The notes under the pieces were generated by a model. It did not search any database and was not told the origin of the DNA. It was given only the letters and a program-made list of their open reading frames with translations. The translations under genes and the position numbers were made by a program. Shown one piece after another: positions 4,744 to 26,239 of a stretch of DNA of 38,112 nucleotides; within the stretch, counting starts at the first letter, position 1; the number at the start of each line of letters is the position of its first letter. The DNA lies in contig JAOAAU010000054.1 in assembly GCA_026418695.1 (NCBI GenBank), positions 1 through 38,112 of the forward strand, in the 5' to 3' direction. This stretch comes from Clostridia bacterium. GTDB taxonomy: Bacteria > Bacillota > Clostridia > Acetivibrionales > JAFADI01.

Positions 4744-5856
4744 CTATATCATTTCCATGATTTCCTTCCCCATGGTCCCTTTTCTAAGTGTAACCGGGTA
4801 TATCCCCTGTAATATTTCGCCATTTACCTTTATATTATACCATGGATTAATATCTGGCGAACCAAAACACAGTTTTGCCGTGCATTCATTACTATCAAAT
4901 ACAATTGATCTCAACGTACCAAAAAATTCATCGTAATAATCGAAACATAACCCTTCTGGATAATGTGTAGTGAGTAATTCTTTAATGTCTTCCTCTGAAA
5001 CTTTGTCTTTTGATGAAAGCTTTTTGTCAATTAGCTCATATCTAAGAACAGAGTGCTTGAGTTTTTTTTCTTCCAGCTGTGTTAATTCAGGAAGACACAC
5101 ATGATTCGTTGAAAATATGTATTGCTCCTCTGTGCTGCTATTGATTTCTTTAATTGCTTTTCTTCCGTCGAAAGTTTCAATCAGTACCGCCTTCCCAGTC
5201 CGATCTGCAGCCATCAGGTTTATATTGAATGCAATAGGCATATCTCTTATAAAGCGGATTGTTTCATCACAATCCGCGCAGTTCTCCAAAACGGAACGTA
5301 TGACAGCCCAGAAGTTTAAGCCCTCGATTGCCGGCTTCCGAAATGCAGGATTCATATTACTCACCGGCAAACCAGCGGAGGTTTGGCTTACTGCAAGTCC
5401 ACACTCATTCATTCCATCTCCCCGTCCAAAAAGCACGGCGGATGAGGATAGGTGTGCATATCTTCCAGTTACCCTTGTTGTCGTAATTGTCATATCATCA
5501 AGTTTCTCACTGAAATCATAGTTCCTCGCCAGTATTGTATGCCCATTCTCAGATTTTGAAGGAAGAATTGCCATTTGGCTGCAGCCAGGCCTCAAAAATG
5601 TCAATGCATAATATAAAACTTGTCCCTTATCAACTTTGAATACGTCACTAAATCCTTCAATTTCTTCATTCAACCCAGGACAAAATTGGTTAAACAACTT
5701 TATTATCTTTTCCCCTTCCGTTTGTGAAAAGGATGCCTGAGGTAAGATATGCGCCTCCTTAAATCCCGGTGAATTACTTACCATTTGCCCAAGCGTTTGT
5801 CCGATGTGATAATTGTCTCCTTCCAGCATTAAATGATACGCATTTGTATTCAGCAT
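4744..5856 (-). CDS. C45-family Ntn-hydrolase (acyl-CoA:6-APA acyltransferase / choloylglycine-hydrolase-like)
   Basis: A 370 aa product with an ARNYDF motif and an internal GMNECGLA site that is a candidate autoproteolytic Cys nucleophile. Family assignment is by motif only. Confidence 0.5.
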   Translation of the reverse strand: MLNTNAYHLMLEGDNYHIGQTLGQMVSNSPGFKEAHILPQASFSQTEGEKIIKLFNQFCPGLNEEIEGFSDVFKVDKGQVLYYALTFLRPGCSQMAILPSKSENGHTILARNYDFSEKLDDMTITTTRVTGRYAHLSSSAVLFGRGDGMNECGLAVSQTSAGLPVSNMNPAFRKPAIEGLNFWAVIRSVLENCADCDETIRFIRDMPIAFNINLMAADRTGKAVLIETFDGRKAIKEINSSTEEQYIFSTNHVCLPELTQLEEKKLKHSVLRYELIDKKLSSKDKVSEEDIKELLTTHYPEGLCFDYYDEFFGTLRSIVFDSNECTAKLCFGSPDINPWYNIKVNGEILQGIYPVTLRKGTMGKEIMEMI

Positions 5857-16473: not shown

Positions 16474-17664
16474 TTATTCTGCCGCTTTAAAATTATAGAT
16501 CGGCTTGATAACCTCCACAATCTCAACGGTATCCTGAATATTGCTCACGATTTCATCCATGGGCTTATACGCCAGTGCACATTCGTCCAGCGTAGACCGG
16601 TTCACGGTTGTTGAATAGATCCCTTCCATGGATTTCTTGAACTCTTCAAGGCTGATCACTTCCTTGGCTTTGCTCCGGCTCATCAACCTTCCGGCGCCAT
16701 GAGGCGCTGAGTAATTCCAGTCTTCATTCCCCTTCCCAATACAGATCAAACTTCCGTCACGCATATTAATGGGGATGAGAACCTTTTCACCCTGATGTGC
16801 AGAAATGGCGCCTTTTCTTAAAATCATTCCCTCAAGATCAATATAGTTATGAATGGTTGTAAACTGCTCCTGTACTTCCAGCTGCATTCTTTTTACGATC
16901 TCATTCACAATGGCCTTACGGTTGAATACCCCAAACTTCTGAACAATCTTCATATCATTTAAATAGTCCTGGTAGTTTTTCCCCTGCACATAGGCTAATT
17001 GCTTATTGATTTTCACAGGCTTTACATTTGTGATTTCCTTCTGGATATCCTTCTCTCTGCCTTCGGCTTTCAGCTTCCTGATGGTCGCAGCAACTTCTCC
17101 ATTAGCTTTCATCAGCTCTTTATAGCCTAATTCCTGATAATGCTCCGCGACCTGTTTCCCTAGATAACGGCTTCCGGAATGCACTACGAGGTATAAAGCG
17201 CCCTCTTTGTCTTTATTCACTTCAATGAAGTGATTTCCGCCACCGAGGGTGCCTACACTCAATCTAGCCCTGTCCAGGCTGACCTGCTTTTTGCAGATAA
17301 GTCCATCAAAATCGATCTTGCTCACATACTCGTGCTGCTTCTTTCTTATATCAAATCCCGAAGGAATGTATTCGTGAATGGTCTTATCCAGCTTTTCCAG
17401 ATCTATATCTTTATTCTTAAGTTTTATTGTTTCCATACCGCAGCCGATATCTACGCCCACCAGATTCGGAACTACTTTGTCCGAGATCGTCATGGTTGTA
17501 CCGATTGTACAGCCTGCTCCCGCGTGGGTATCGGGCATAATTCTGATGATGCTGTCCTTCACAAACTCCTGGTTGCAGAGTTCCATGATTTGAGCAAAGG
17601 CAACATCTTCCACGTTATCTGTGAATACCTTGGCAGTATTGAACTTTCCCCTGATTTCTAACAT
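16474..17664 (-). CDS. rtcB: RtcB-family RNA 3'-phosphate/2',3'-cyclic phosphate ligase (short bacterial form)
   Basis: MPDTHAGAGCTIGTT, GVDIGCGM and HSGSR motifs. An extended -10 (TGATAAAAT) lies upstream. Confidence 0.85.
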   Translation of the reverse strand: MLEIRGKFNTAKVFTDNVEDVAFAQIMELCNQEFVKDSIIRIMPDTHAGAGCTIGTTMTISDKVVPNLVGVDIGCGMETIKLKNKDIDLEKLDKTIHEYIPSGFDIRKKQHEYVSKIDFDGLICKKQVSLDRARLSVGTLGGGNHFIEVNKDKEGALYLVVHSGSRYLGKQVAEHYQELGYKELMKANGEVAATIRKLKAEGREKDIQKEITNVKPVKINKQLAYVQGKNYQDYLNDMKIVQKFGVFNRKAIVNEIVKRMQLEVQEQFTTIHNYIDLEGMILRKGAISAHQGEKVLIPINMRDGSLICIGKGNEDWNYSAPHGAGRLMSRSKAKEVISLEEFKKSMEGIYSTTVNRSTLDECALAYKPMDEIVSNIQDTVEIVEVIKPIYNFKAAE

Positions 17665-17819: not shown

Positions 17820-18932
17820 TTATGCCCCTTTAGTTTTATTTGAAAGCAAAGCATTCAACTGTTCAATCAGGCTGCCTCCACCCAGTAGAGAAACATTCCC
17901 GATCTTGTCACAGATTTTTTCGAGGAATTCAAGTTCCTTCAACCGGTACAGCGTCTGGTTTTCTTCCATCAGCTTAGCGGTATTCAGCAGGCTTCGTGTG
18001 GAGGCGATTTCCTCCCTGCGTGTAATCACATTTGCCTGAGCCTTCTTTTCAGCGATCAGAACTGTATTCAGAATCTCTCGAATATCCCCAGGCAGGATAA
18101 TATCCTTCAGACCTGCATAGAGGAACGCAATACCGAAGTCTTCACTCTTTTCTTTCAAACGTTCGAGAACATATTCGCCGACTTCCTGCTTTTTTGACAG
18201 CAAGTCATCCAGCTTCAGTGAACCCACATATTCCCGAAGAATCAGCTGCAAAAGAATATACATCTGTTCTTCAAAGGATTTAATTTCAATCACCTTGAGC
18301 GGGTCCACAATTTTATAATGACAAACGAAATTCAACCGCAGGGTAATTTTATCCTCTGTCGTGATTTCCTGACCGGTCATGTCGATCTGCTGCTTCCGCA
18401 TGTCAACATTTTTAACAGTAACATGGGTAGGGCTCTTCCAGAAGAAGTACCTTCCAGGTTCAAGGATTTTCTGGATTACGTTATTGTAGTAAAGAATACC
18501 CTTTTCATGGCTGGCAACTTCGTAGTAGCCCACATATCCTGCAAGCTTGGAGTTATTGTAAATCGAAGGATCGATCTCCGGCTTCACCCCGGGCTCCCTG
18601 GTATCAATCATAATGAAGTCATGCTTCTTCAACACCTTCCAGAAAGCATACTTTCCTGCTTTCAAAACCTCTGTCAGCTTGCCGTCTTCAAAATGGATCG
18701 CAATTTCAAAGTCCTGAACATCCACAACTGTCAGTTCCTTCACAAGTTCTTGATCTTCCATGTAAATGTTTATATTCTTGCCCATTATATCAAAGGGCTT
18801 ATTGATATCCTGCATGGTTACCTTGTAGTCAACAAAGGGGTTCAGGTAGTACTTCCCGGGCTTCAGGGTCTTAACATAGTTGCCGTCCTTGAACAGCAAA
18901 CCCCTTTGGTCATTCATCACAAATACTTTCAT
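17820..18932 (-). CDS. SPFH/band-7 (slipin-like) domain protein with N-terminal triple repeat and no TM helix
   Basis: C-terminal SPFH region (ITLRLNFVCHYKIVDP...ITRREEIA...). The N-terminus has three repeats (LKPGKYYLNPFVDYKV, LKAGKYAFWKVLKKHDF, LEPGRYFFWKSPTHVTV). The ATG at 18932 has an AAGGTG SD. Confidence 0.6.
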   Translation of the reverse strand: MKVFVMNDQRGLLFKDGNYVKTLKPGKYYLNPFVDYKVTMQDINKPFDIMGKNINIYMEDQELVKELTVVDVQDFEIAIHFEDGKLTEVLKAGKYAFWKVLKKHDFIMIDTREPGVKPEIDPSIYNNSKLAGYVGYYEVASHEKGILYYNNVIQKILEPGRYFFWKSPTHVTVKNVDMRKQQIDMTGQEITTEDKITLRLNFVCHYKIVDPLKVIEIKSFEEQMYILLQLILREYVGSLKLDDLLSKKQEVGEYVLERLKEKSEDFGIAFLYAGLKDIILPGDIREILNTVLIAEKKAQANVITRREEIASTRSLLNTAKLMEENQTLYRLKELEFLEKICDKIGNVSLLGGGSLIEQLNALLSNKTKGA

Positions 18933-19291
18933 TTTCTTCACCTTCTTTTTCTAATGCTATTTAACCTATAGTCTCATTCTTTGTTTGAACCTTCAATAAG
19001 AATCCTCCCGGGATCTCCGCGGAATGCTGCTTGAGATGAAGTCATTCATACCGTTGCTTGTAGATCCAGGCCAAGTTTACATGAAATTTCAGCAAAGTTA
19101 GCCTTTTCTCCATCAGCAAGGATATGCTTTTCTTCATCGGTATCTGCCCACTTCAAAGCTTCAGTTCCGGTGTCACAGCAGGAAGCCCGATGTAACAGAG
19201 GATTCTTTTAAAGGCTCTTGTTCATTACACAGTGGAAGTGTGTTAGTAGATCCCTGGTCTACCGCGTTTTCCATTTCGCCAATCAAGTCTT

Positions 19292-19356
19292 AAGCTTGAT
19301 GAAGGATTCGAACCTTCAAAAACCGGCTGAATGCTCTACCGCTGAGCTAATCACCT
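19292..19356 (-). pseudogene. degenerate tRNA-like sequence (5' acceptor, D arm and anticodon stem fused to a T arm; about 8-10 nt missing between)
   Basis: The minus strand reads AGGTGATTAGCTCAGCGGTAGAGCATTCAGCCGGTTTTTGAAGGTTCGAATCCTTCATCAAGC. The D arm and T loop are canonical, but the acceptor ends do not pair and the anticodon arm overlaps the T stem. Confidence 0.4.
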
Positions 19357-19357
19357 A

Positions 19358-19390
19358 TGGGTGATAGAGGAATCGAACCTCTGACACTTC
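19358..19390 (-). other. isolated tRNA 3' fragment (T arm, acceptor 3' strand and discriminator)
   Basis: The minus strand reads GAAGTGTCAGAGGTTCGATTCCTCTATCACCCA. Its acceptor 3' strand ATCACCC is complementary (6 of 7) to the AGGTGAT 5' end of the adjacent tRNA-like sequence. Confidence 0.4.
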
Positions 19391-19510
19391 AGTTATATGA
19401 TTAATGCTGCCGCTGCTTCCGGTATACCTTTTATGACTAAGTAAAAAGCACCGCGAGACTATACTGAAATCTCCACTTTGGAAACAGAAACAACAAGAAC
19501 CCCTAATTCA

Positions 19511-19747
19511 TTAACCTGCACTCACAGAACAAATAAAATACCTCTTTCCATTAATGATCATTCTGTGATTTCTTTTATTCAATTCGGTGAGGGACAGCAC
19601 CTTCTGTTTCCTGTCGGAAACGTCAAACACCTCGATTTTTGTGCCTTCACCGACAACCTTGTTAAAAAACAAATCGGACTTTTCACTCTTAAAGCAACGC
19701 TTGCCAATCAAAACATTCCGTACAGGCGTCACCTTTAAAACCATCAT
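19511..19747 (-). CDS. hypothetical small protein (79 aa)
   Basis: A GGGTGG SD lies 5 nt before ATGATGG. The ORF is directly downstream of the YkuK-like gene on the same strand. Confidence 0.4.
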   Translation of the reverse strand: MMVLKVTPVRNVLIGKRCFKSEKSDLFFNKVVGEGTKIEVFDVSDRKQKVLSLTELNKRNHRMIINGKRYFICSVSAG

Positions 19748-19760
19748 AATTACCACCCTT

Positions 19761-20276
19761 TCAACTTACTTTCATGTCTTTGCTGTACCTGTTTGCATAG
19801 CTGCTGGCAACGAAGGAATCCGGCTTGATCTTTGCATCGATTCCTATGCCTTCAAAATATCCTGCCATTTCCCTGATCAATGTTCTGGTTTCGCCCTTGG
19901 TTCCTACATCGATATGGGCTTCCAGCTTGCAATCAAAGTTCTTGTAATGCTGAGTAAACCCATATAAAGCGTCTATAATTCCTTCGTTTAGTGCGTGGGC
20001 TACTTCATATGTAATTAAAGTCTCTTTTGCAATTTTCTCCTTCAGGTTTTTGTATCTTTTATTCTCAACTCTTTTGCTGATACAGCACCAAGCACCCTGG
20101 CCGATCCTATGGACATGGATTCCTGTGGCAAAGCAGGTATACCTGCCTTTTACCTGGGAATCCGTTCCGACTGCGATACGATATCTGCAATCCGGATTCG
20201 CTTTAATAAAGTATTTGATGCTTGCTATCACATCTATAAAGCTCATATTCTTTTGTGTTGAATTAAAAAATTTCAT
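19761..20276 (-). CDS. YkuK-like RNase-H-fold protein (DUF458)
   Basis: 171 aa with RYRIAVGTDSQ and later acidic residues consistent with DUF458/YkuK. Confidence 0.55.
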   Translation of the reverse strand: MKFFNSTQKNMSFIDVIASIKYFIKANPDCRYRIAVGTDSQVKGRYTCFATGIHVHRIGQGAWCCISKRVENKRYKNLKEKIAKETLITYEVAHALNEGIIDALYGFTQHYKNFDCKLEAHIDVGTKGETRTLIREMAGYFEGIGIDAKIKPDSFVASSYANRYSKDMKVS

Positions 20277-20436
20277 ATTCTCACCGTCTTTCCAATATTC
20301 TCTGGAAAATTGTCAGAAGCGAGGAGAACAAGGCGCAAAGTGCAGGGAGACACGGAGTTTATACATGATAAATGAGTATTGAGCAAACTTTGCAACGCAG
20401 TAATCCGACGCTTATCACAATTTTCAAAACAAAAAG

Positions 20437-20483
20437 AGAGCAGTTAAATCCATTCACAGACTTAACCGCTCTCTTGATAAATG
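20437..20483 (-). terminator. rho-independent terminator of small-gene module 1
   Basis: The stem is AAGAGAGCGGTTAA-loop-TTAACTGCTCTCTT. It is followed by TTTTTGTTTTG on the minus strand. Confidence 0.6.
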
Positions 20484-20501
20484 CTTTTTTTAGTAATGCC
20501 C

Positions 20502-20651
20502 TTATAAAACACCGTCAGGGCACAATCGTTTTTCGCATTTAAGCAACAGAGGATCAAGCCAATGTAACCGTAAATCTATGATACTTGGTTTATGTGACAA
20601 TCCGTTCGCTATATTCATTTGTTCAAGCCAACCATTTCTAAGTAGGTACAT
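20502..20651 (-). CDS. small ORF, module 1 (49 aa: MYLLRNGWLEQMNIANGLSHKPSIIDLRLHWLDPLLLKCEKRLCPDGVL)
   Basis: An AAGGGAGG SD lies 7 nt before the ATG. A TTGACG-17-TAAAAT promoter lies about 90 nt upstream, and the terminator follows about 20 nt after the stop. The ORF is below the 60 aa cutoff of the ORF track. Confidence 0.5.
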   Translation of the reverse strand: MYLLRNGWLEQMNIANGLSHKPSIIDLRLHWLDPLLLKCEKRLCPDGVL

Positions 20652-20745
20652 TGTTAATCCTCCCTTCTGATTGTTCAAATCCTAACTTTAAAACTTTACC
20701 ATTGCTGCTTTACTCAGCAACACTTTTCAAGGCATAGTGATTTAA

Positions 20746-20774
20746 ATTTTACAACCTGCAAGACCCTTCGTCAA
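20746..20774 (-). promoter_or_regulatory. sigma-A-type promoter TTGACG-N17-TAAAAT driving module 1
   Basis: Read directly on the minus strand. The -35 element overlaps the stop codon of the upstream 41-aa ORF. Confidence 0.55.
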
Positions 20775-20896
20775 GCATTTTCCTTTTCTGTAATATTATT
20801 GTAATAATTCAACTTGTAACTAGTTTCTTGCTTTTCAATCAGTTTCATTGTGGCATAAGCCATAATAATCAATACCACTTGCAATACCATTTCCAT
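20771..20896 (-). CDS. possible small hydrophobic peptide (41 aa: MEMVLQVVLIIMAYATMKLIEKQETSYKLNYYNNITEKENA)
   Basis: A GAAGGTG SD precedes the ORF, which lies between terminator 2 and promoter 1. No promoter of its own was seen. Confidence 0.25.
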   Translation of the reverse strand: MEMVLQVVLIIMAYATMKLIEKQETSYKLNYYNNITEKENA

Positions 20897-20914
20897 CACC
20901 TTCACTTCAATACT

Positions 20915-20966
20915 TCAAAAAACAATAAAGCGGTTAAGCCATGGATATACTCTGACTTAACCGCTC
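20915..20966 (-). terminator. rho-independent terminator of small-gene module 2 and/or the ABC operon
   Basis: A perfect 10-bp stem AGCGGTTAAG/CTTAACCGCT, followed on the minus strand by TTTATTGTTTTTTG. It shares a GAGCGGTTAAGTC core with terminator 1. Confidence 0.6.
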
Positions 20967-20990
20967 GTTATTCAACCTGTAACAAGTACG

Positions 20991-21116
20991 CTAAATTTCC
21001 GTATATCGCCTGAATAGAGGATTACGCCAGTATGAGCAGGAATCTGCCGGACAATTGGATGCATATCCAAGGTCGTTATTTATTTTTTCAAAAATAGATG
21101 CAGCACGTCTGTTCAC
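20991..21116 (-). CDS. small ORF, module 2 (41 aa, GTG start: (M)NRRAASIFEKINNDLGYASNCPADSCSYWRNPLFRRYTEI)
   Basis: A GGAAGGAGG SD lies 6 nt before the GTG. It shares the TGGC.T.ATCCTCT.TT nucleotide block, encoding W-x-(D/N)-P-L, with module 1. It is flanked by promoter 2 and terminator 2. Confidence 0.4.
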   Translation of the reverse strand: MNRRAASIFEKINNDLGYASNCPADSCSYWRNPLFRRYTEI

Positions 21117-21152
21117 TGTAATCCTCCTTCCAATTTTTGTTTATTTCACTAG

Positions 21153-21183
21153 AATTCTACCGTATGGACACCGCCGGTGTCAA
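21153..21183 (-). promoter_or_regulatory. promoter TTGACA-N17-TAGAAT with an embedded 15-bp perfect palindrome GACACCGGCGGTGTC in the spacer
   Basis: Read directly on the minus strand. A palindrome between -35 and -10 is a classic repressor-operator position. Confidence 0.55.
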
Positions 21184-21230
21184 CAGAAGTATCCGTACTG
21201 TAATTTGATTGTAATGATTTGGTAATATTG

Positions 21231-22028
21231 TCATACTGCTATATCTCTTCTCTGGTATATCCAATATGCAAAAAAATTGCTGATGACAATGACAGCAAAC
21301 ATTATCCCGAGGTAAGTCGTACTAATGCTCTTATTGATTACGATTCCTACTGCATCCACATATTCATAAGGTGTAATATACTTAAGATTTTCGAACTTCC
21401 CTGAGACACTGGAAACAATATCTAAAAAATACATGACAAAAACCAGCCCAAGAGAGATTGAAACTATATTCCTGCTCTTTTTCATCCGGCTGGACAGGAG
21501 AAAAGCAATACTCGCAAATACAAGATGGAGTAAAAGCGGCGCTATTGAAAGGAGCAGGAATACGCCCATATCAAATTCAGCCTTCGTCATTTTAAATCCA
21601 ATATAGTTGGCAACGGTAATCAACAGATTAAAAATCAGCAGGTTTGTGAAGATGGCTAAAAGTTTTTGTGTGATAATTCCACTTCTCTTTACCGGGTTGG
21701 ATAATAAAAACTCGATTGTCTTTTCATTATGCTCTTTCGAGAGCATATTTCCGGCCAGCATCACTGCATAGATACTTCCAAACAGAATGATCATCAGATA
21801 TCCCTTTGTAGCATAATAGCCCATTGGGTCCGCCATACTGAGCTTATCCATTCCAAAAGCTTTAATCAAGGTCTGAGGGAGCTGCTTTATAAGCTGATCT
21901 ATGGCTGCCTGCTGCTTCGCCACATCCGGAAACATCATAAGGTTCAGAATGGTGAGCCCACCGATTACAAGCGTCCAGATAATCAATCCCTTCAGATTCC
22001 TTTGAATTTCTCGTCTGAATATCATCAT
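21231..22028 (-). CDS. ABC-2 type transporter permease
   Basis: Six predicted TM helices. A GAGGAGGGG SD precedes the gene, and its start overlaps the end of the upstream ATPase gene. Confidence 0.75.
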   Translation of the reverse strand: MMIFRREIQRNLKGLIIWTLVIGGLTILNLMMFPDVAKQQAAIDQLIKQLPQTLIKAFGMDKLSMADPMGYYATKGYLMIILFGSIYAVMLAGNMLSKEHNEKTIEFLLSNPVKRSGIITQKLLAIFTNLLIFNLLITVANYIGFKMTKAEFDMGVFLLLSIAPLLLHLVFASIAFLLSSRMKKSRNIVSISLGLVFVMYFLDIVSSVSGKFENLKYITPYEYVDAVGIVINKSISTTYLGIMFAVIVISNFFAYWIYQRRDIAV

Positions 22029-22040
22029 GCCTGCCCCTCC

Positions 22041-22916
22041 TCAATTCTCATAATAGTGCATAAAGACTTCGTCCAGGGAAGGTTCCTCGATCAGCAGGTC
22101 TCTGACCTGTACTCTGCTCAAGGTCTGAATCATATTACCGATATCTCCTCCATACAGGAGATGCACCGTATTTCCTTCCCACTCTTGCTTCTTTCCGCCT
22201 TCAATATTAAACCCGCTTTCCATTTGCCCCTCAAACGTCACGGTAACCTTCCTGAACTGGTTCTTGATCAGATTTTCTACGCTCTCAACCTTGATCAATT
22301 CACCCTCTTTAATAATCGCAACCCTGCTGCACATGCTTTGTACTTCCGAGAGAATATGGGAAGAAAAGAAAATCGCAACTCCTTTTTGGTTTTCCTCTTT
22401 CAAAAGGTCAAAGAAAACACTTCGTATCAATGGGTCCAGTCCTCCGGTTGGCTCATCCAGTATTAAAAGCTTTGGACTATGTATCAGCGCCTGAATGATG
22501 CCGACTTTCTTTTTATTCCCCAGGGATAAATCCTCAATTCTCTTGTTGAGGTTCAGATCCAGCCGCTCCGCCAGTTCTTTCATCTTCTTTGGGTTTTCAT
22601 TCCCGTAGAAAGCCTGAGAATACTGAAGAAGTTGAAAAACCCGCATGTCATCGTAGTAATTCACCTCCGAGGGCAGATACCCAATATCCTTGCGTATTTC
22701 CAGCGAGTTCTTCACAGCATTCTTACCAAAGATATAAGCTTTCCCGCCGGAGGGATAGATTAAATTCAGCAATATCCTTATCGTAGTACTTTTTCCTGCG
22801 CCATTTGGGCCTATGAAGCCAAATATTTCTCCTTCTTTTATATCAAACGTGATATTTTTAATCCCTCGATGCTTACCATAGTACTTTGTCAGATTCTGAA
22901 GCTCTATCACGGGCAT
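22041..22916 (-). CDS. ABC transporter ATP-binding protein
   Basis: Walker A GPNGAGKST, signature LSLGNKKK, Walker B LILDEPT. Start is set at MPVIEL, which has an AGGAGG SD. Confidence 0.85.
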   Translation of the reverse strand: MPVIELQNLTKYYGKHRGIKNITFDIKEGEIFGFIGPNGAGKSTTIRILLNLIYPSGGKAYIFGKNAVKNSLEIRKDIGYLPSEVNYYDDMRVFQLLQYSQAFYGNENPKKMKELAERLDLNLNKRIEDLSLGNKKKVGIIQALIHSPKLLILDEPTGGLDPLIRSVFFDLLKEENQKGVAIFFSSHILSEVQSMCSRVAIIKEGELIKVESVENLIKNQFRKVTVTFEGQMESGFNIEGGKKQEWEGNTVHLLYGGDIGNMIQTLSRVQVRDLLIEEPSLDEVFMHYYEN

Positions 22917-23154: not shown

Positions 23155-25506
23155 TTACGCTTTTATTTCCTTCCAAAAGTTGTTTAAAGCAGAGTTTAAG
23201 CTTTCAATGCCTTTTACCCCTTTTTGATGCTGCCAATGGGCGGGAAAAAGCCTTTGATAGAGAGAATCAGAAAACCTTTGATCAATTAAAAGGACAATCC
23301 CCCGGTCCGTTTCCGAGCGGATCACCCTTCCGGACGCCTGCAACACCTTGTTCATCCCCGGAAAAACGTAGGCATACTCATATCCAAGCCCGTTTTTCTT
23401 TCTGAAATATTCCATCATGATATTTCTTTCCAGGCAGATTTGAGGCAGTCCAACGCCTACGATAATAGCCCCCAGTAACCGGTCCCCTTTTAGATCAATC
23501 CCTTCGGAGAAAATCCCACCTAACACGGCAAATCCCACCAACGCTCCCTCTGCTTTCGATTTAAAGTTATCGAGAAAGGCTTCTCGTTCTTCCTCTGTCA
23601 TGATATTGGATTGCAGCAGCGTTTTTATTCCCGGATACAGTTCTTCAAATCTGAGGTTCACTTCATTCATGTATTTGTAAGACGGAAAGAAAGCCATATA
23701 GTTTCCCGGTTTCCGGTGAATTACTGCATGAATATACTTGGCAATTTCCGTATAGCTGTTTTCTCTTTCCTTATATTTGGTTGAAATCGTGTTAGATACC
23801 AGCAGGCATAGATTATCCCGCTCAAATGGCGAATTTAGCTGCATTTTGTAATCACAATCACTACCGCCTAGTATGTCTATATAATAGTCAATGGGTGTGA
23901 GGGTAGCCGAGAAAAAGATCGCGGCCTTTCCCCTTTTTAAAGCCTCTCCCAGTAAGAAGGACGGATCCAGACAGAATAGTTTGAGTTTTACACCGGATTG
24001 ATCCTTTTCGACGTAAGTAACATACCTTTCATCATACAACTCCGTCGTTTTGATAAACGCAAGAAGTTCAAAATAAAGGTTTAATAACTCCTCATAGCCT
24101 TCTGACTTATCACTTCCGGACAGCCAAGCCTCTGCCTCTTTCACCAGTTCTTTCAGTAATGGATATATTTCCTTCGGTTCCTCTTTGGACGAAGTATAAT
24201 TCTCCTCTCCACAACTCTTTTTCATTTCAAGCAGCAAGGAGTTTACGTTACTTAGTGCTTTAGAGAGCTTCGGCCTTTTTGATTTAAACACCTTCTTCAG
24301 TTGCAGGAACGGTCTCTTCTGAAGTTCCGCCGAAAACATTTCTCTCGACCGGTCCACCAGGTTGTGAGCTTCGTCGATTAAGAATATATAGTCCCCTGTA
24401 TTGAATTGAAAGAACCTTTTTAAATAGACCCTTGGATCAAAAACGTAGTTGTAGTCACAGATAACGCAATCGGACCATATCGCCAAGTCCAAAGAAAGCT
24501 CAAAGGGACATACCTGATACTTTTGAGCATATTTTTCTACAATCTCTCTTGTAAAAGACTGTTCATTGGTATAGATCTCCATAATCGCCTTGTCAACCCG
24601 GTCATAATGCCCTTTTGCATACTCGCAGTTCTCCGGATTGCAGACTGCATTTTCCTTGAAACATATCTTTTCTTTCGCTGTTAATATGATCGTTTTGAAG
24701 CTTAGTCCCTGCTCCCTCATTTTTTCAAAGGCTTCTTCCGCCACTTGCCTGGTAATGGTTTTTGCCGTCAGATAAAAAATCTTTGTCGCTTTTTCTTCTC
24801 CCATGGCCTTCACTGTAGGGAACAAGGTTGAAATAGTTTTCCCGATCCCGGTCGGGGCTTGTACAAACAGATTCTTCTCCTCTGAAATCGTTTTATAAAC
24901 GGCCACGGCCAATTCCCGCTGACCCGCACGATACTTCTCAAAAGGGAATTTCAGATCTTTAATTGAGCTGTTTCTCTGAACCTCCCAATCACGGGTGATC
25001 GTCGCCCAAACGAGATACCTGTCCATCAGCGCATAAAAAAACTCCTTGACCTCGTCAAAAGCAAAGTGTTTTCTGATCCGCTTGATCTCATCCGTATCGA
25101 TTTGGTAGTAGGTCAACTGAATGTCAATGTGAGTTAAAGCATTCTGCGCAGCATAAATATAGGCATAGCATTTAGCCTGTGCCCAATGCAAAGGATTATA
25201 GGATTCATCAATAAACTCTAATGGCATGGGAGTCGTTTTTATTTCATCGATCACTATGCTCGAGCCTTCCTGAATGACGCCGTCAATGCGGCCCTCGAGG
25301 GTCAATGAGAATCCCATATATTCAAAACAGTAAGTCAAAGGCACTTCGGCTTGGTAGCCTTCAATCCCTGACTTCTGAACCTTCTGATGTAATTTCGTTC
25401 CCTCCAGAGCTCTACTGCTGCTGATAAAACGATTGTCAATATCCCCTGAACGAAGAGTAAACTCCACCAGATTCCGTATAGATATTCTAATATCGCTTGT
25501 TGGCAT
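23155..25506 (-). CDS. XPD/DinG (Rad3)-family Fe-S DNA helicase with an additional N-terminal PD-(D/E)XK-nuclease-like domain
   Basis: Walker A APTGIGKT, an Fe-S Cys cluster (CFKENAVCNPENC...C), DEAH-like FLIDEAHNL, and C-terminal helicase motifs. The N-terminal ~200 aa has a VIDEIKT (D-E-x-K-like) motif. Confidence 0.7.
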   Translation of the reverse strand: MPTSDIRISIRNLVEFTLRSGDIDNRFISSSRALEGTKLHQKVQKSGIEGYQAEVPLTYCFEYMGFSLTLEGRIDGVIQEGSSIVIDEIKTTPMPLEFIDESYNPLHWAQAKCYAYIYAAQNALTHIDIQLTYYQIDTDEIKRIRKHFAFDEVKEFFYALMDRYLVWATITRDWEVQRNSSIKDLKFPFEKYRAGQRELAVAVYKTISEEKNLFVQAPTGIGKTISTLFPTVKAMGEEKATKIFYLTAKTITRQVAEEAFEKMREQGLSFKTIILTAKEKICFKENAVCNPENCEYAKGHYDRVDKAIMEIYTNEQSFTREIVEKYAQKYQVCPFELSLDLAIWSDCVICDYNYVFDPRVYLKRFFQFNTGDYIFLIDEAHNLVDRSREMFSAELQKRPFLQLKKVFKSKRPKLSKALSNVNSLLLEMKKSCGEENYTSSKEEPKEIYPLLKELVKEAEAWLSGSDKSEGYEELLNLYFELLAFIKTTELYDERYVTYVEKDQSGVKLKLFCLDPSFLLGEALKRGKAAIFFSATLTPIDYYIDILGGSDCDYKMQLNSPFERDNLCLLVSNTISTKYKERENSYTEIAKYIHAVIHRKPGNYMAFFPSYKYMNEVNLRFEELYPGIKTLLQSNIMTEEEREAFLDNFKSKAEGALVGFAVLGGIFSEGIDLKGDRLLGAIIVGVGLPQICLERNIMMEYFRKKNGLGYEYAYVFPGMNKVLQASGRVIRSETDRGIVLLIDQRFSDSLYQRLFPAHWQHQKGVKGIESLNSALNNFWKEIKA

Positions 25507-26239
25507 TTATTTTATCTTTTCCACCATTCCCCTGAAATCAAAAAATTTTAAACTTTTACAGGTATCACAAACATACGTTCGCATCTATATTATAAGCCCA
25601 TGGAGCTTTAGTGTAAAGGATAATCCCAGAGGACGGATTAAAAGAGAGATAAAAAAAGACTTTCCAGATTTCTCGAGAAAAATTAAGAAAGCACCCGGTT
25701 TCGGATGCTTTCTTTAATATTATACTCTGCATTTCTCCCCTTGAGATGCAGAGTAAAAAACTTATTCAACTTTATAGTTATATTATACTCCTGATGCCAT
25801 ATTTTATCAATGCTTTTGCAGAATAAAAGCCATACTATGCAACAGGGGAGAGTCGTTCCATACTATGGCTTCACTTCTGGGGAGAAGTAAACAGATATGT
25901 TTATTATAGTAAATGTTATTCTACATTTTTCTAGAGAATCCTTCTTTTTCACAAAAAATTTTTAAGAAATTTCATTCATAAGGTAAAAATTTCTTCCCGT
26001 CCCTGCAAAATGAGCTTTTTTATATAGGAAAATTTTATAAGCTGCGATACTTATTGACGAAACTATAAATAACAACAATTAAGGCTAGTGAAAACAAACT
26101 ATTAAGCCAATGAATACATTCCTTTTTGTCACACCCCTTCCACTTTAAAGGAATCATTCAACGCAATGGTCTCATCAACAAGTTCAATGGTTTGTTAATA
26201 GCCTTGAATTTGTTTGGGGACTCAAGTAATAGAATCCCA

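Follow-up and report, generated by a model that had tools for sequence, protein, structure and literature searches.

The subject of this report is a pair of compact transcription units found in a 38,112-nucleotide (nt) stretch of a Clostridia bacterium genome (GenBank assembly GCA_026418695.1, contig JAOAAU010000054.1), hereafter the window. Both lie on the minus strand, in the gap between an ABC-2 permease gene (21231-22028) and a YkuK-type gene, and each consists of a promoter, a Shine-Dalgarno sequence (SD), a short open reading frame (ORF) and a terminator. They are named A and B in the direction of transcription (Table 1). All the main elements reported for this place in a preliminary description of the DNA were recovered: the strong SDs, the ORFs of 41 and 49 codons, the rho-independent terminators with a common core (GAGCGGTTAAGTC, a direct repeat) and a nearly identical nucleotide block within the two ORFs (TGGC.T.ATCCTCT.TT). 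The complementarity of this block to the upstream SD, also put forward there, extends further than had been seen and reaches the start codon. Both promoters are near-consensus as described, with the expected spacer of 17 nt in unit B; the spacer of unit A is 18 nt and not 17. The gap had been said to hold no ORF of 60 amino acids (aa) or more, which must be corrected for a mechanical ORF of 61 aa on the plus strand (20828-21013). A 44-aa ORF located between the units (20771-20905) was rejected as spurious: it has no homologue at any locus and overlaps the box and promoter of unit B. The arms of the unit A terminator form an inverted-repeat pair (20965-20953 / 20941-20929) followed by a T run and are seen also in the fold; a simple terminator scan overlooked them because the loop is 11 nt long.

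Table 1. Features of units A and B and of their genomic neighbourhood (window positions, unless a locus number beginning with L is given)
Feature	Position	Strand	Description
Unit A box	21199-21215	+	TGTAAT-TTGAT-TGTAAT; on the minus strand ATTACA-N5-ATTACA, 15 nt 5' of the -35 element
Unit A promoter	21154-21183	-	-35 TTGACA 21183-21178, -10 TAGAAT 21159-21154, 18-nt spacer; 11 of 12 consensus positions matched
Unit A SD		-	GGAGGATTAC, then GTG start at 21116
Unit A S1	21114-21127	-	SD GGAGGAUUAC and GUG start codon; pairs with S2 in the minimum-free-energy fold
Unit A leader ORF	20991-21116	-	41 codons, MNRRAASIFEKINNDLGYASNCPADSCSYWRNPLFRRYTEI; annotated as hypothetical protein in the source record (P0040)
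Unit A S2	21016-21034	-	CAUACUGGCGUAAUCCUCU; switch segment within the ORF, partner S1 or S3
Unit A terminator	20917-20966	-	S3 GAGCGGUUAAGUC 20966-20954, S4 GGCUUAACCGCU 20940-20929, U tract
Unit B box	20789-20805	+	TGTAAT-ATTAT-TGTAAT; direct repeat, 17 nt
Unit B promoter	20746-20774	-	TTGACG-17-TAAAAT
Unit B 5' leader	20665-20739	-	conserved CUAUGCCUUGAAAAGUG and hairpin at about 20723-20701; putative transcript start near 20739
Unit B SD		-	GGGAGGATTAACA, then ATG at 20651
Unit B S1	20646-20664	-	GGGAGGAUUAACA-AUG-UAC: SD, start codon and codon 2
Unit B leader ORF	20502-20651	-	49 codons, MYLLRNGWLEQMNIANGLSHKPSIIDLRLHWLDPLLLKCEKRLCPDGVL
Unit B S2	20547-20567	-	UUACAUUGGCUUGAUCCUCUG; switch segment
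Unit B terminator	20424-20475	-	S3 GAGCGGUUAAGUC 20471-20459, S4 20451-20434, U tract
ykuK-like gene	19761-20276	-	RNaseH_like (PF04308), Pfam E = 1.4e-52; first gene 3' of unit B
orf81	19511-19756	-	81 aa; adjoins the ykuK-like gene in 23 loci (tblastn); conserved partner of DUF458/YkuK
YrlA candidate	19299-19409	-	RF02553; 44.1 bits against a gathering score of 69; E = 1.7e-8 (661-nt search)
SPFH gene	17820-18941	-	between the YrlA-like candidate and RtcB
RtcB gene	16474-17664	-	PF01139, E = 1.7e-65; order on the strand: unit A, unit B, ykuK-like, orf81, YrlA-like, SPFH, RtcB
tRNA arrays	L006 2749-3169; L066 4634-5843; L078 5412-6797; L075 5255-5330 onward		after ykuK-orf81 in L006 and L066

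When one genome per species was scanned for the YkuK-like protein, 28 loci came up, belonging to Acetivibrio, Pseudobacteroides, Thermoclostridium and to metagenome-assembled genomes of Clostridia. Iterated profile searches of their six-frame translations placed the peptide B family just 5' of the YkuK-like gene in about 20 of the 28, often as two tandem copies, and 26 unit copies were counted across these syntenic loci. Tandem pairs are kept in about 10 loci. Peptide A is a divergent member of the same family (profile E = 1e-10), which supports the paralogy suspected between the two units. About 35 further bona fide units were detected in metagenome contigs by a scan for the exact 20-nt S2 pattern (see below), which is blind to neighbouring genes. 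These homologues, in syntenic loci and in metagenomes, indicate that the units are more than a chance arrangement. The 52 non-identical units collected in total all come from Acetivibrio/Pseudobacteroides-like Clostridia, and the family comprises at least this number. Its members have a common order of elements: a box, a promoter, a leader of about 85 nt beginning with aCUgUGCCUnnAAAAgUG, a hairpin, AAAGGAGGAUUAnCA-AUG-UAU, and a 41-51-codon ORF in which CAUUGGCUUAAUCCUCU lies 84-87 nt past the AUG, followed by AAGCAUUUA and a terminator of the form GAG(U/C)GGUUAAGUC(C)... Both the 5' motif and the stem of the leader hairpin, which covaries, recur from unit to unit. A decayed third copy of the S2 region is also present in the window, at about 26037-26157 on the minus strand (…ECIHWLNSLF…, TGTATTCATTGGCTTAATAGT), 3' of a 145-aa ORF; devoid of SD partner, anti-SD core and matching terminator, it is probably a relic.

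The family has so far no name in the databases. A search of 5.8 billion proteins gave 46 clusters matching the peptide profile, all unnamed and none with a Pfam domain; peptide A is among them and peptide B, which appears to be unannotated, is not, its best protein-search match having at most 76% identity. Peptides A and B and the 44-aa ORF have no Pfam match at E <= 0.01. The Rfam matches in window positions 19500-22500 are at chance level only (E > 0.4), and in 11 unit-carrying loci nothing but tRNAs reaches the gathering score: no T-box, riboswitch, known leader or small RNA (sRNA). In the searchable literature, whose coverage is incomplete, no prior description was found of a leader or attenuator 5' of RtcB, Hen1 or Thg1, nor of a function of ykuK; YkuK/DUF458 is mentioned as a predicted RNase H-like protein and nothing more.

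The constraint acting on these units is best appreciated at the RNA level, where four segments can be distinguished: S1 (the SD and the start of the ORF), S2 (the block within the ORF), and S3 and S4 (the two arms of the terminator). The S1:S2 helix and the terminator were both predicted de novo by RNAalifold on 26 full units. S1:S2 is a bipartite helix of 17 bp, in which GGAGGAUUA pairs with UAAUCCUCU, and CAAUGUAU, the start and Tyr2 codons, with AUACAUUG, the Ile-His-Trp codons. In an anchored alignment of 50 units, 93.2% of its cells are paired (sliding the partner gives no more than 48.5%), and it contains 8 compensatory cells against 2.2 +/- 1.4 in shuffles (0/500). Illustrative cases are AUGUUU:AAACAU in L030, AUGUAC:GUACAU in L068 and GGAGAA:UUCUC in L010A. 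Substitutions among the homologues therefore respect the proposed SD:anti-SD pairing through compensatory changes, and the reading frame is kept in every copy. The terminator stem covaries freely outside the zone that pairs with S2, and a covarying hairpin with a U tract is found in all units.

S2 has a second potential partner. Its centre (GGCUUAAUC, then CUCU) could also pair with the terminator's 5' arm, which reads GGUUAAGUC after AGAG; 98% of the cells are paired in this helix, and sliding the partner gives no more than 63%. The substitutions observed in the part of S3 that faces S2 are transitions only, and they keep the pairing with both S2 and S4. The conserved K-C codons (AAAUGY) moreover pair with GCAUUU just 5' of the terminator, in a helper helix that shows compensatory variants (AAAUGU:ACAUUU in L020/L022, GAUUGU:ACAGUU in L013A/L014A); together with S2:S3 it makes one long interrupted stem. 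Covariation is thus seen in S1:S2, S3:S4 and the helper helix. A pairing of the 5' leader motif with GCAUUU was considered and dropped in favour of the AAAUGY:GCAUUU helix, being weak and uncompensated in the unit sequences.

These helices are mutually exclusive, and the predicted folds differ according to how much of the RNA is available. In full-length minimum-free-energy folds, S1:S2 and the terminator occur together in 46 of 52 units and S2:S3 in none (0/52). When the RNA was truncated after S3, with S1 to codon 10 blocked, S2:S3 formed in 45 of 52. S2 is likewise the best upstream partner of S3 in 45 of 52 units, at about -14 kcal/mol, to be compared with -18 to -20 for S1:S2 and about -20 kcal/mol for the terminator. 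Unit A of the window behaves in the same manner: its S2 makes 13 bp in either fold, the partner being S1 when the RNA is full-length and S3 when it is nascent. The modelled folds match what would be expected of a kinetic switch, and the layout, judged from the pairing potential, is trp-like, with alternative helices 1:2, 2:3 and 3:4.

The leader ORF itself carries two different signatures. Reading frame 0 runs without a stop from the start codon to the end of S2 in 51 of 51 units, whereas the two other frames are open in 1/51 and 0/51 and contain on average 2.5 and 4.3 stops; from this contrast, the ORF is evidently under selection to stay open. The SD is strong, the distance from start to S2 is constant (84-87 nt) and indels within the ORF keep the frame. 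On the strength of the SD and of the open frame, the ORF is predicted to be translated. The second signature is that of the codons. Codons 3-27 are saturated for diversity at all three positions, so that the amino acid is not under selection there. Third-position diversity is about zero in ATA-CAT-TGG-CTT-AAT-CCT (I-H-W-L-N-P), and the constraint must therefore act on the nucleotides. M-Y and I-H-W are conserved because the start and Tyr2 codons pair with the Ile-His-Trp codons, and the N/D alternation in W-x-(D/N)-P-L corresponds to an A/G transition opposite U. This last element had been presented as a peptide motif; with its synonymous sites frozen, it makes better sense as a stretch of RNA that can take either of two partners. 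The most conserved residues (M-Y, I-H-W-L-N-P-L and K-C) are all accounted for by the predicted RNA pairings, and the motif of the micropeptide is mostly a shadow of RNA base-pairing. The sensing of specific tRNAs through the Q-tRNA codons (Tyr/His/Asn/Asp) was also envisaged and abandoned, the conserved NAU codons being explained by pairing and the composition of the ORF showing only a mild enrichment of C/N/W/Y/H.

These signatures bear directly on the view that the units are independent small-protein genes, in which the 41-51-aa peptide would be functional, for example as a partner or regulator of RNA-repair enzymes, the pairing would tune its translation and the terminators would be leaky. 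The units do come with a promoter of their own, as well as a strong SD and a terminator, their ORF is open in every case, and gene callers predicted it as a protein in 46 clusters; a few columns (L24, I20, I/M34 and L46) are peptide-like in that they vary at the third position only. Nevertheless, two thirds of the peptide is saturated at every codon position, the best-conserved residues have frozen synonymous sites that S1:S2, S2:S3 and the helper helix explain, and no peptide has a Pfam match. In addition, another gene always follows closely 3' of the unit; the terminator lies between the two, and a promoter is often lacking. Independent small-protein genes are on balance an unlikely explanation.

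The identity of the genes placed after the terminators also bears on a role in cis. In about 10 loci related to that of the window, the ykuK-like gene follows the unit terminator after a mere 15-40 nt. Elsewhere the terminators are followed by RtcB (PF01139; in one case then TatD), by a T4 Rnl1-like ligase, by an HD protein and then Hen1, or by an array made of a 149-aa AAA_33 kinase, a Thg1-like protein, an ADP-ribosylglycohydrolase and a metallophosphoesterase. The genomes of isolates agree with this picture. In Acetivibrio cellulolyticus, two serial units are followed by tRNA-Lys and tRNA-like pieces, then by a 524-aa protein, a pair of PF09414 RNA ligases and an HD/AAA_33 protein, and in Pseudobacteroides cellulosolvens the unit is followed by seven tRNA genes together with an EF-Ts paralogue and an RNA ligase. 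One unit (L054) has a Ro60/TROVE gene directly 5' of it. For about 19 units the next start codon lies only 15-60 nt away, too close to accommodate a promoter, and in L014, L068, L044/L071 and L075 the second unit starts 50-95 nt past the first terminator without a promoter of its own. Downstream expression must therefore come from terminator read-through. The conserved placement and the frozen pairing segment lead together to the view that each unit is a cis-acting leader, and the comparison of loci shows that A and B belong to a conserved, hitherto undescribed family of leader RNAs placed before RNA-repair genes in cellulolytic clostridia.

The units had initially been interpreted as a free-standing regulatory small-protein or dual-function sRNA family, which agrees poorly with their position directly 5' of RNA-repair-type genes, often without room for a promoter. 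An action in trans would require that the terminated transcript of about 230-320 nt serves as a dual-function sRNA whose anti-SD-like S2 (UAAUCCUCU) binds the ribosome-binding sites of other mRNAs. A discrete promoter-to-terminator transcript is indeed predicted for each unit, and S2 is complementary to GGAGGA-type SDs in general. S2 is however buried in S1:S2 in 46 of 52 full-length folds, no specific trans target is indicated, and the conserved position 5' of RNA-repair genes, together with the occurrence of units in series, points to action in cis; a trans-acting sRNA is accordingly considered very unlikely. The neighbouring transporter provides a further contrast. The position downstream of an ABC transporter, initially retained as the context of the units, is peculiar to the window: ABC transporter genes stand beside no other unit copy in the 78 loci, and a functional link to the ABC-2 transporter was discarded for this reason. 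This contradicts already the idea that the units encode exported peptides (a precursor of a ribosomally synthesized and post-translationally modified peptide (RiPP), a bacteriocin or a pheromone) handled by the adjacent transporter. Such an idea would draw on the ABC ATPase and ABC-2 permease directly upstream in the window and on the small size and Cys content of the peptides; these are hydrophilic and unconstrained at most positions, have no signal or leader motif, and are accompanied by no modification enzyme, which makes it exceedingly improbable. RiPP, pheromone and type I toxin readings were all rejected, with no co-occurring machinery and peptides that are hydrophilic and largely unconstrained.

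Taken together, these data favour the interpretation that each unit is a cis-acting translated leader, functioning as a ribosome-dependent transcription attenuator for an RNA-repair regulon, to which a probability of about 60% is attributed. According to this model, a sigma-A-type promoter, often with a TGTAAT-N5-TGTAAT box 5' of it, would produce a leader RNA of about 230-320 nt ending at the intrinsic terminator. S2, a segment of 20 nt covering codons 29-35 (AUACAUUGGCUUAAUCCUCU), would choose between two mutually exclusive partners, S1 and S3. The S1:S2 helix (about 17 bp) would shut the ribosome-binding site and free the S3:S4 terminator, so that the transcript ends. The S2:S3 helix (GGCUUAAUC:GGUUAAGUC and CUCU:AGAG), stacked on the AAAUGY/GCAUUU helper helix, would be the antiterminator and allow read-through into the ykuK-like gene and orf81, or, at other loci, into RtcB, RNA ligases, a Pnk-like kinase with a Thg1-like protein, an HD protein with Hen1, or tRNA arrays. 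A ribosome loaded on S1 and slowed or stalled within the first 28 codons or so would leave S2 free to capture the emerging S3, with read-through as the outcome. The absence of a ribosome would let S1:S2 close, and a ribosome arriving quickly at S2 or at the stop codon would block S2:S3, termination being expected in both cases. The leader would in this way report a slowed or damaged translation apparatus and turn on repair genes. In the window, unit A would act in series with unit B, which also has its own promoter, and the ykuK-like gene is presumably regulated by unit B.

Several observations weigh against this interpretation. No codon run and no known arrest motif was recognised in the leader ORFs, and the direction of the switch, as well as its signal, is therefore a guess; the opposite polarity, in which active translation turns read-through on, may apply. 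S2:S3 shows no compensatory double changes, because both of its sides are nearly invariant, and it relies on complementarity and conservation. The few columns cited above still look peptide-like. The units being homologous, counts such as 45/52 are not independent of one another. The evidence for the mechanism is computational throughout, the transcript starts and ends being predicted. In the window itself, 158 nt separate the terminator of unit B from the ykuK-like gene, and an unrecognised promoter could be located there, even if a promoter scan of this spacer found no promoter-like site. Finally, transcription and translation are largely uncoupled in Bacillus-type bacteria, and classical ribosome-mediated attenuation is for this reason less likely unless the RNA polymerase pauses. 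An additional feature of the 158-nt spacer is a 17-nt inverted repeat (20305-20321 / 20409-20425, 88% complementary, arms 87 nt apart), which spans the region from the unit B terminator to the SD of the ykuK-like gene and could, as RNA, close off the entire spacer.

The role assigned to the ribosome could also be played by another factor. A protein, a damaged or uncharged tRNA, a Y-RNA/Ro complex or a small molecule would then set the switch, translation being secondary, and candidate binding sites would be the 5' motif UGCCUnnAAAAGUG, the UGGC internal loop and the invariant GGUUAAGUC. S3/S4 and the 5' leader motif are indeed conserved well past the needs of a terminator, and the precedent of RtcR (PMC7790460) makes it plausible that RNA-repair genes would respond to RNA fragments. 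Against this proposal stand the strong selection for an open ORF, the pairing of S3 with both S2 and S4, which suffices to explain its conservation, and the lack of a T-box or other Rfam match. Control by a non-ribosomal factor is thus rated quite unlikely, and ribosome-dependent attenuation is retained as the preferred interpretation.

The promoters carry further signals. The pattern TGTWAH-N5-TGTWAH is matched exactly at just two places in the 38-kb window, against 0.2 expected by chance; these are the boxes of units A and B, located about 13-15 nt upstream of the -35 element, and the box is kept in about 25 of 52 units. This pattern evokes the sites of WalR; other OmpR-family regulators have similar sites, and no WalR-type regulator gene occurs within the 38-kb window. 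The promoter spacer of unit A contains in addition a palindrome, GACACCG-G-CGGTGTC (21167-21181, minus strand). Spacer palindromes of the form ACAGG-N9-CCTGT are present in the A-type units of L005, L006, L008, L010, L015, L038, L059 and L068, and may constitute the operator of a second regulator. In L005 (ACGGG…CCCGT), the two halves of the palindrome differ symmetrically.

The genes that follow the ykuK-like gene in the window are listed in Table 1. orf81 has no Pfam family match. The YrlA-like candidate, between orf81 and the SPFH gene and 5' of RtcB, has the permuted order T-arm, acceptor-like stem, D-arm, and ARAGORN calls no tRNA at this position. Its vicinity to RtcB recalls the rsr-yrlA-rtcBA arrangement. 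It was not retained as a general part of the ykuK operon, as none was found in 9 other loci. The RtcB gene of the window has no unit directly 5' of it, unlike those of L038 and L060; the interval between SPFH and RtcB measures 155 nt and contains a strong 17-bp hairpin (17815-17775). On the other side of the units, 5' of the ABC transporter and on the same strand, a gene at 23155-25506 (minus strand) encodes a 783-aa DinG/Rad3-type helicase with an N-terminal PD-(D/E)XK nuclease domain.

At other loci, arrays of 5-9 tRNA genes on the same strand follow a unit or ykuK-orf81, and most of them begin with tRNA-Lys(UUU). ARAGORN also called a tRNA-Asn(ATT) 5' of the units in L010 and a tRNA-Tyr(ATA) in L059. 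A motif, GAGGTGC-N4-GAAGACTAC, occurs exactly once in L075 (A. cellulolyticus, 5663-5682), within the tRNA-like pieces (about 5330-5800); looser variants are found in L075 and between the tandem units, after the A-type terminators, of L006, L010 and L068. No Rfam family matches it; it may represent an interrupted tRNA of unusual type, or else a structured RNA of a different kind.

To our knowledge, no mechanism is known outside Proteobacteria for the sensing of RNA damage and the control of RtcB, Pnkp/Hen1, Thg1-like and RNA-ligase genes. One conserved leader in front of all these operons provides a directly testable regulatory element and a sequence-based definition of an RNA-repair regulon, as well as a clue to what two orphan families, YkuK/DUF458 and its 81-aa partner, may do. 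A micropeptide whose conserved motif mostly reflects RNA pairing is also relevant to the annotation of small ORFs. A broader and more tentative proposal, held at less than even odds, is that the leader family could be the sensor of a Gram-positive response to damage of the translation apparatus. The ribosome engaged on a sacrificial ORF would report damaged tRNAs or ribosomes, and antitermination would open a dispersed regulon made of RtcB, Rnl-type ligases, a Pnk-like kinase, Hen1, a Thg1-like 5'-end repair enzyme, YkuK/DUF458, an EF-Ts paralogue, a Y-RNA-like RNA and spare tRNA arrays. If this is true, the orphan YkuK family would be assigned to RNA repair.

The comparison with known systems can be made at several levels. 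At the promoter, TGTWAH-N5-TGTWAH is the consensus of B. subtilis WalR (YycF), as quoted in bioRxiv 10.1101/2022.04.01.486798. Both units of the window carry an exact match to this B. subtilis consensus, the binding being here a prediction; the known WalR regulon is however devoted to cell-wall metabolism, and only about half of the units carry the box. At the level of the RNA, the E. coli attenuators trpL, hisL, pheL, thrL, leuL and ilvL similarly combine a short translated leader ORF with an intrinsic terminator before the regulated genes. The predicted arrangement of three overlapping helices (1:2, a putative 2:3 antiterminator and the 3:4 terminator), with the ribosome's position as the presumed arbiter, also corresponds to theirs. 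In the present family, by contrast, region 1 is the leader's own SD and start instead of a run of regulatory codons, no codon run exists, the stop codon comes after region 2, the host is clostridial, there is no sequence similarity, and the regulated genes belong to RNA repair where theirs are biosynthetic. The units would consequently represent an undescribed attenuator family, with an unusual layout and an unusual regulon built on a known logic.

In Firmicutes, leaders that respond to inhibitors (ermC/ermB, bmrB-bmrCD, vmlR, lmo0919 and the msrD leader MsrDL) rely on specific drug-dependent arrest peptides and control resistance genes (e.g. PMC10314930). The principle proposed here is similar, a ribosome slowed on a leader ORF remodelling the RNA so that a translation-protecting gene is expressed. 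The difference lies in the peptide, for which no arrest motif was identified and whose conserved part is mostly an RNA-pairing segment, and in the targets, one leader family preceding many distinct RNA-repair operons. In Proteobacteria, lastly, rtcBA is controlled by RtcR and sigma-54, RtcR being a CARF-domain activator that senses tRNA fragments (PMC7790460). This system resembles the present one in that it controls RtcB-type repair genes, in presumed response to damage of the translation apparatus (PMC7790460), and in its link to Y-RNA-like RNAs and Ro, the window having a YrlA-like candidate near RtcB. No such regulator is present here, and control would be exerted instead by a cis-acting translated leader and its terminator. 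Should the damage-response proposal prove true, this leader would be an RNA-built functional counterpart of RtcR.

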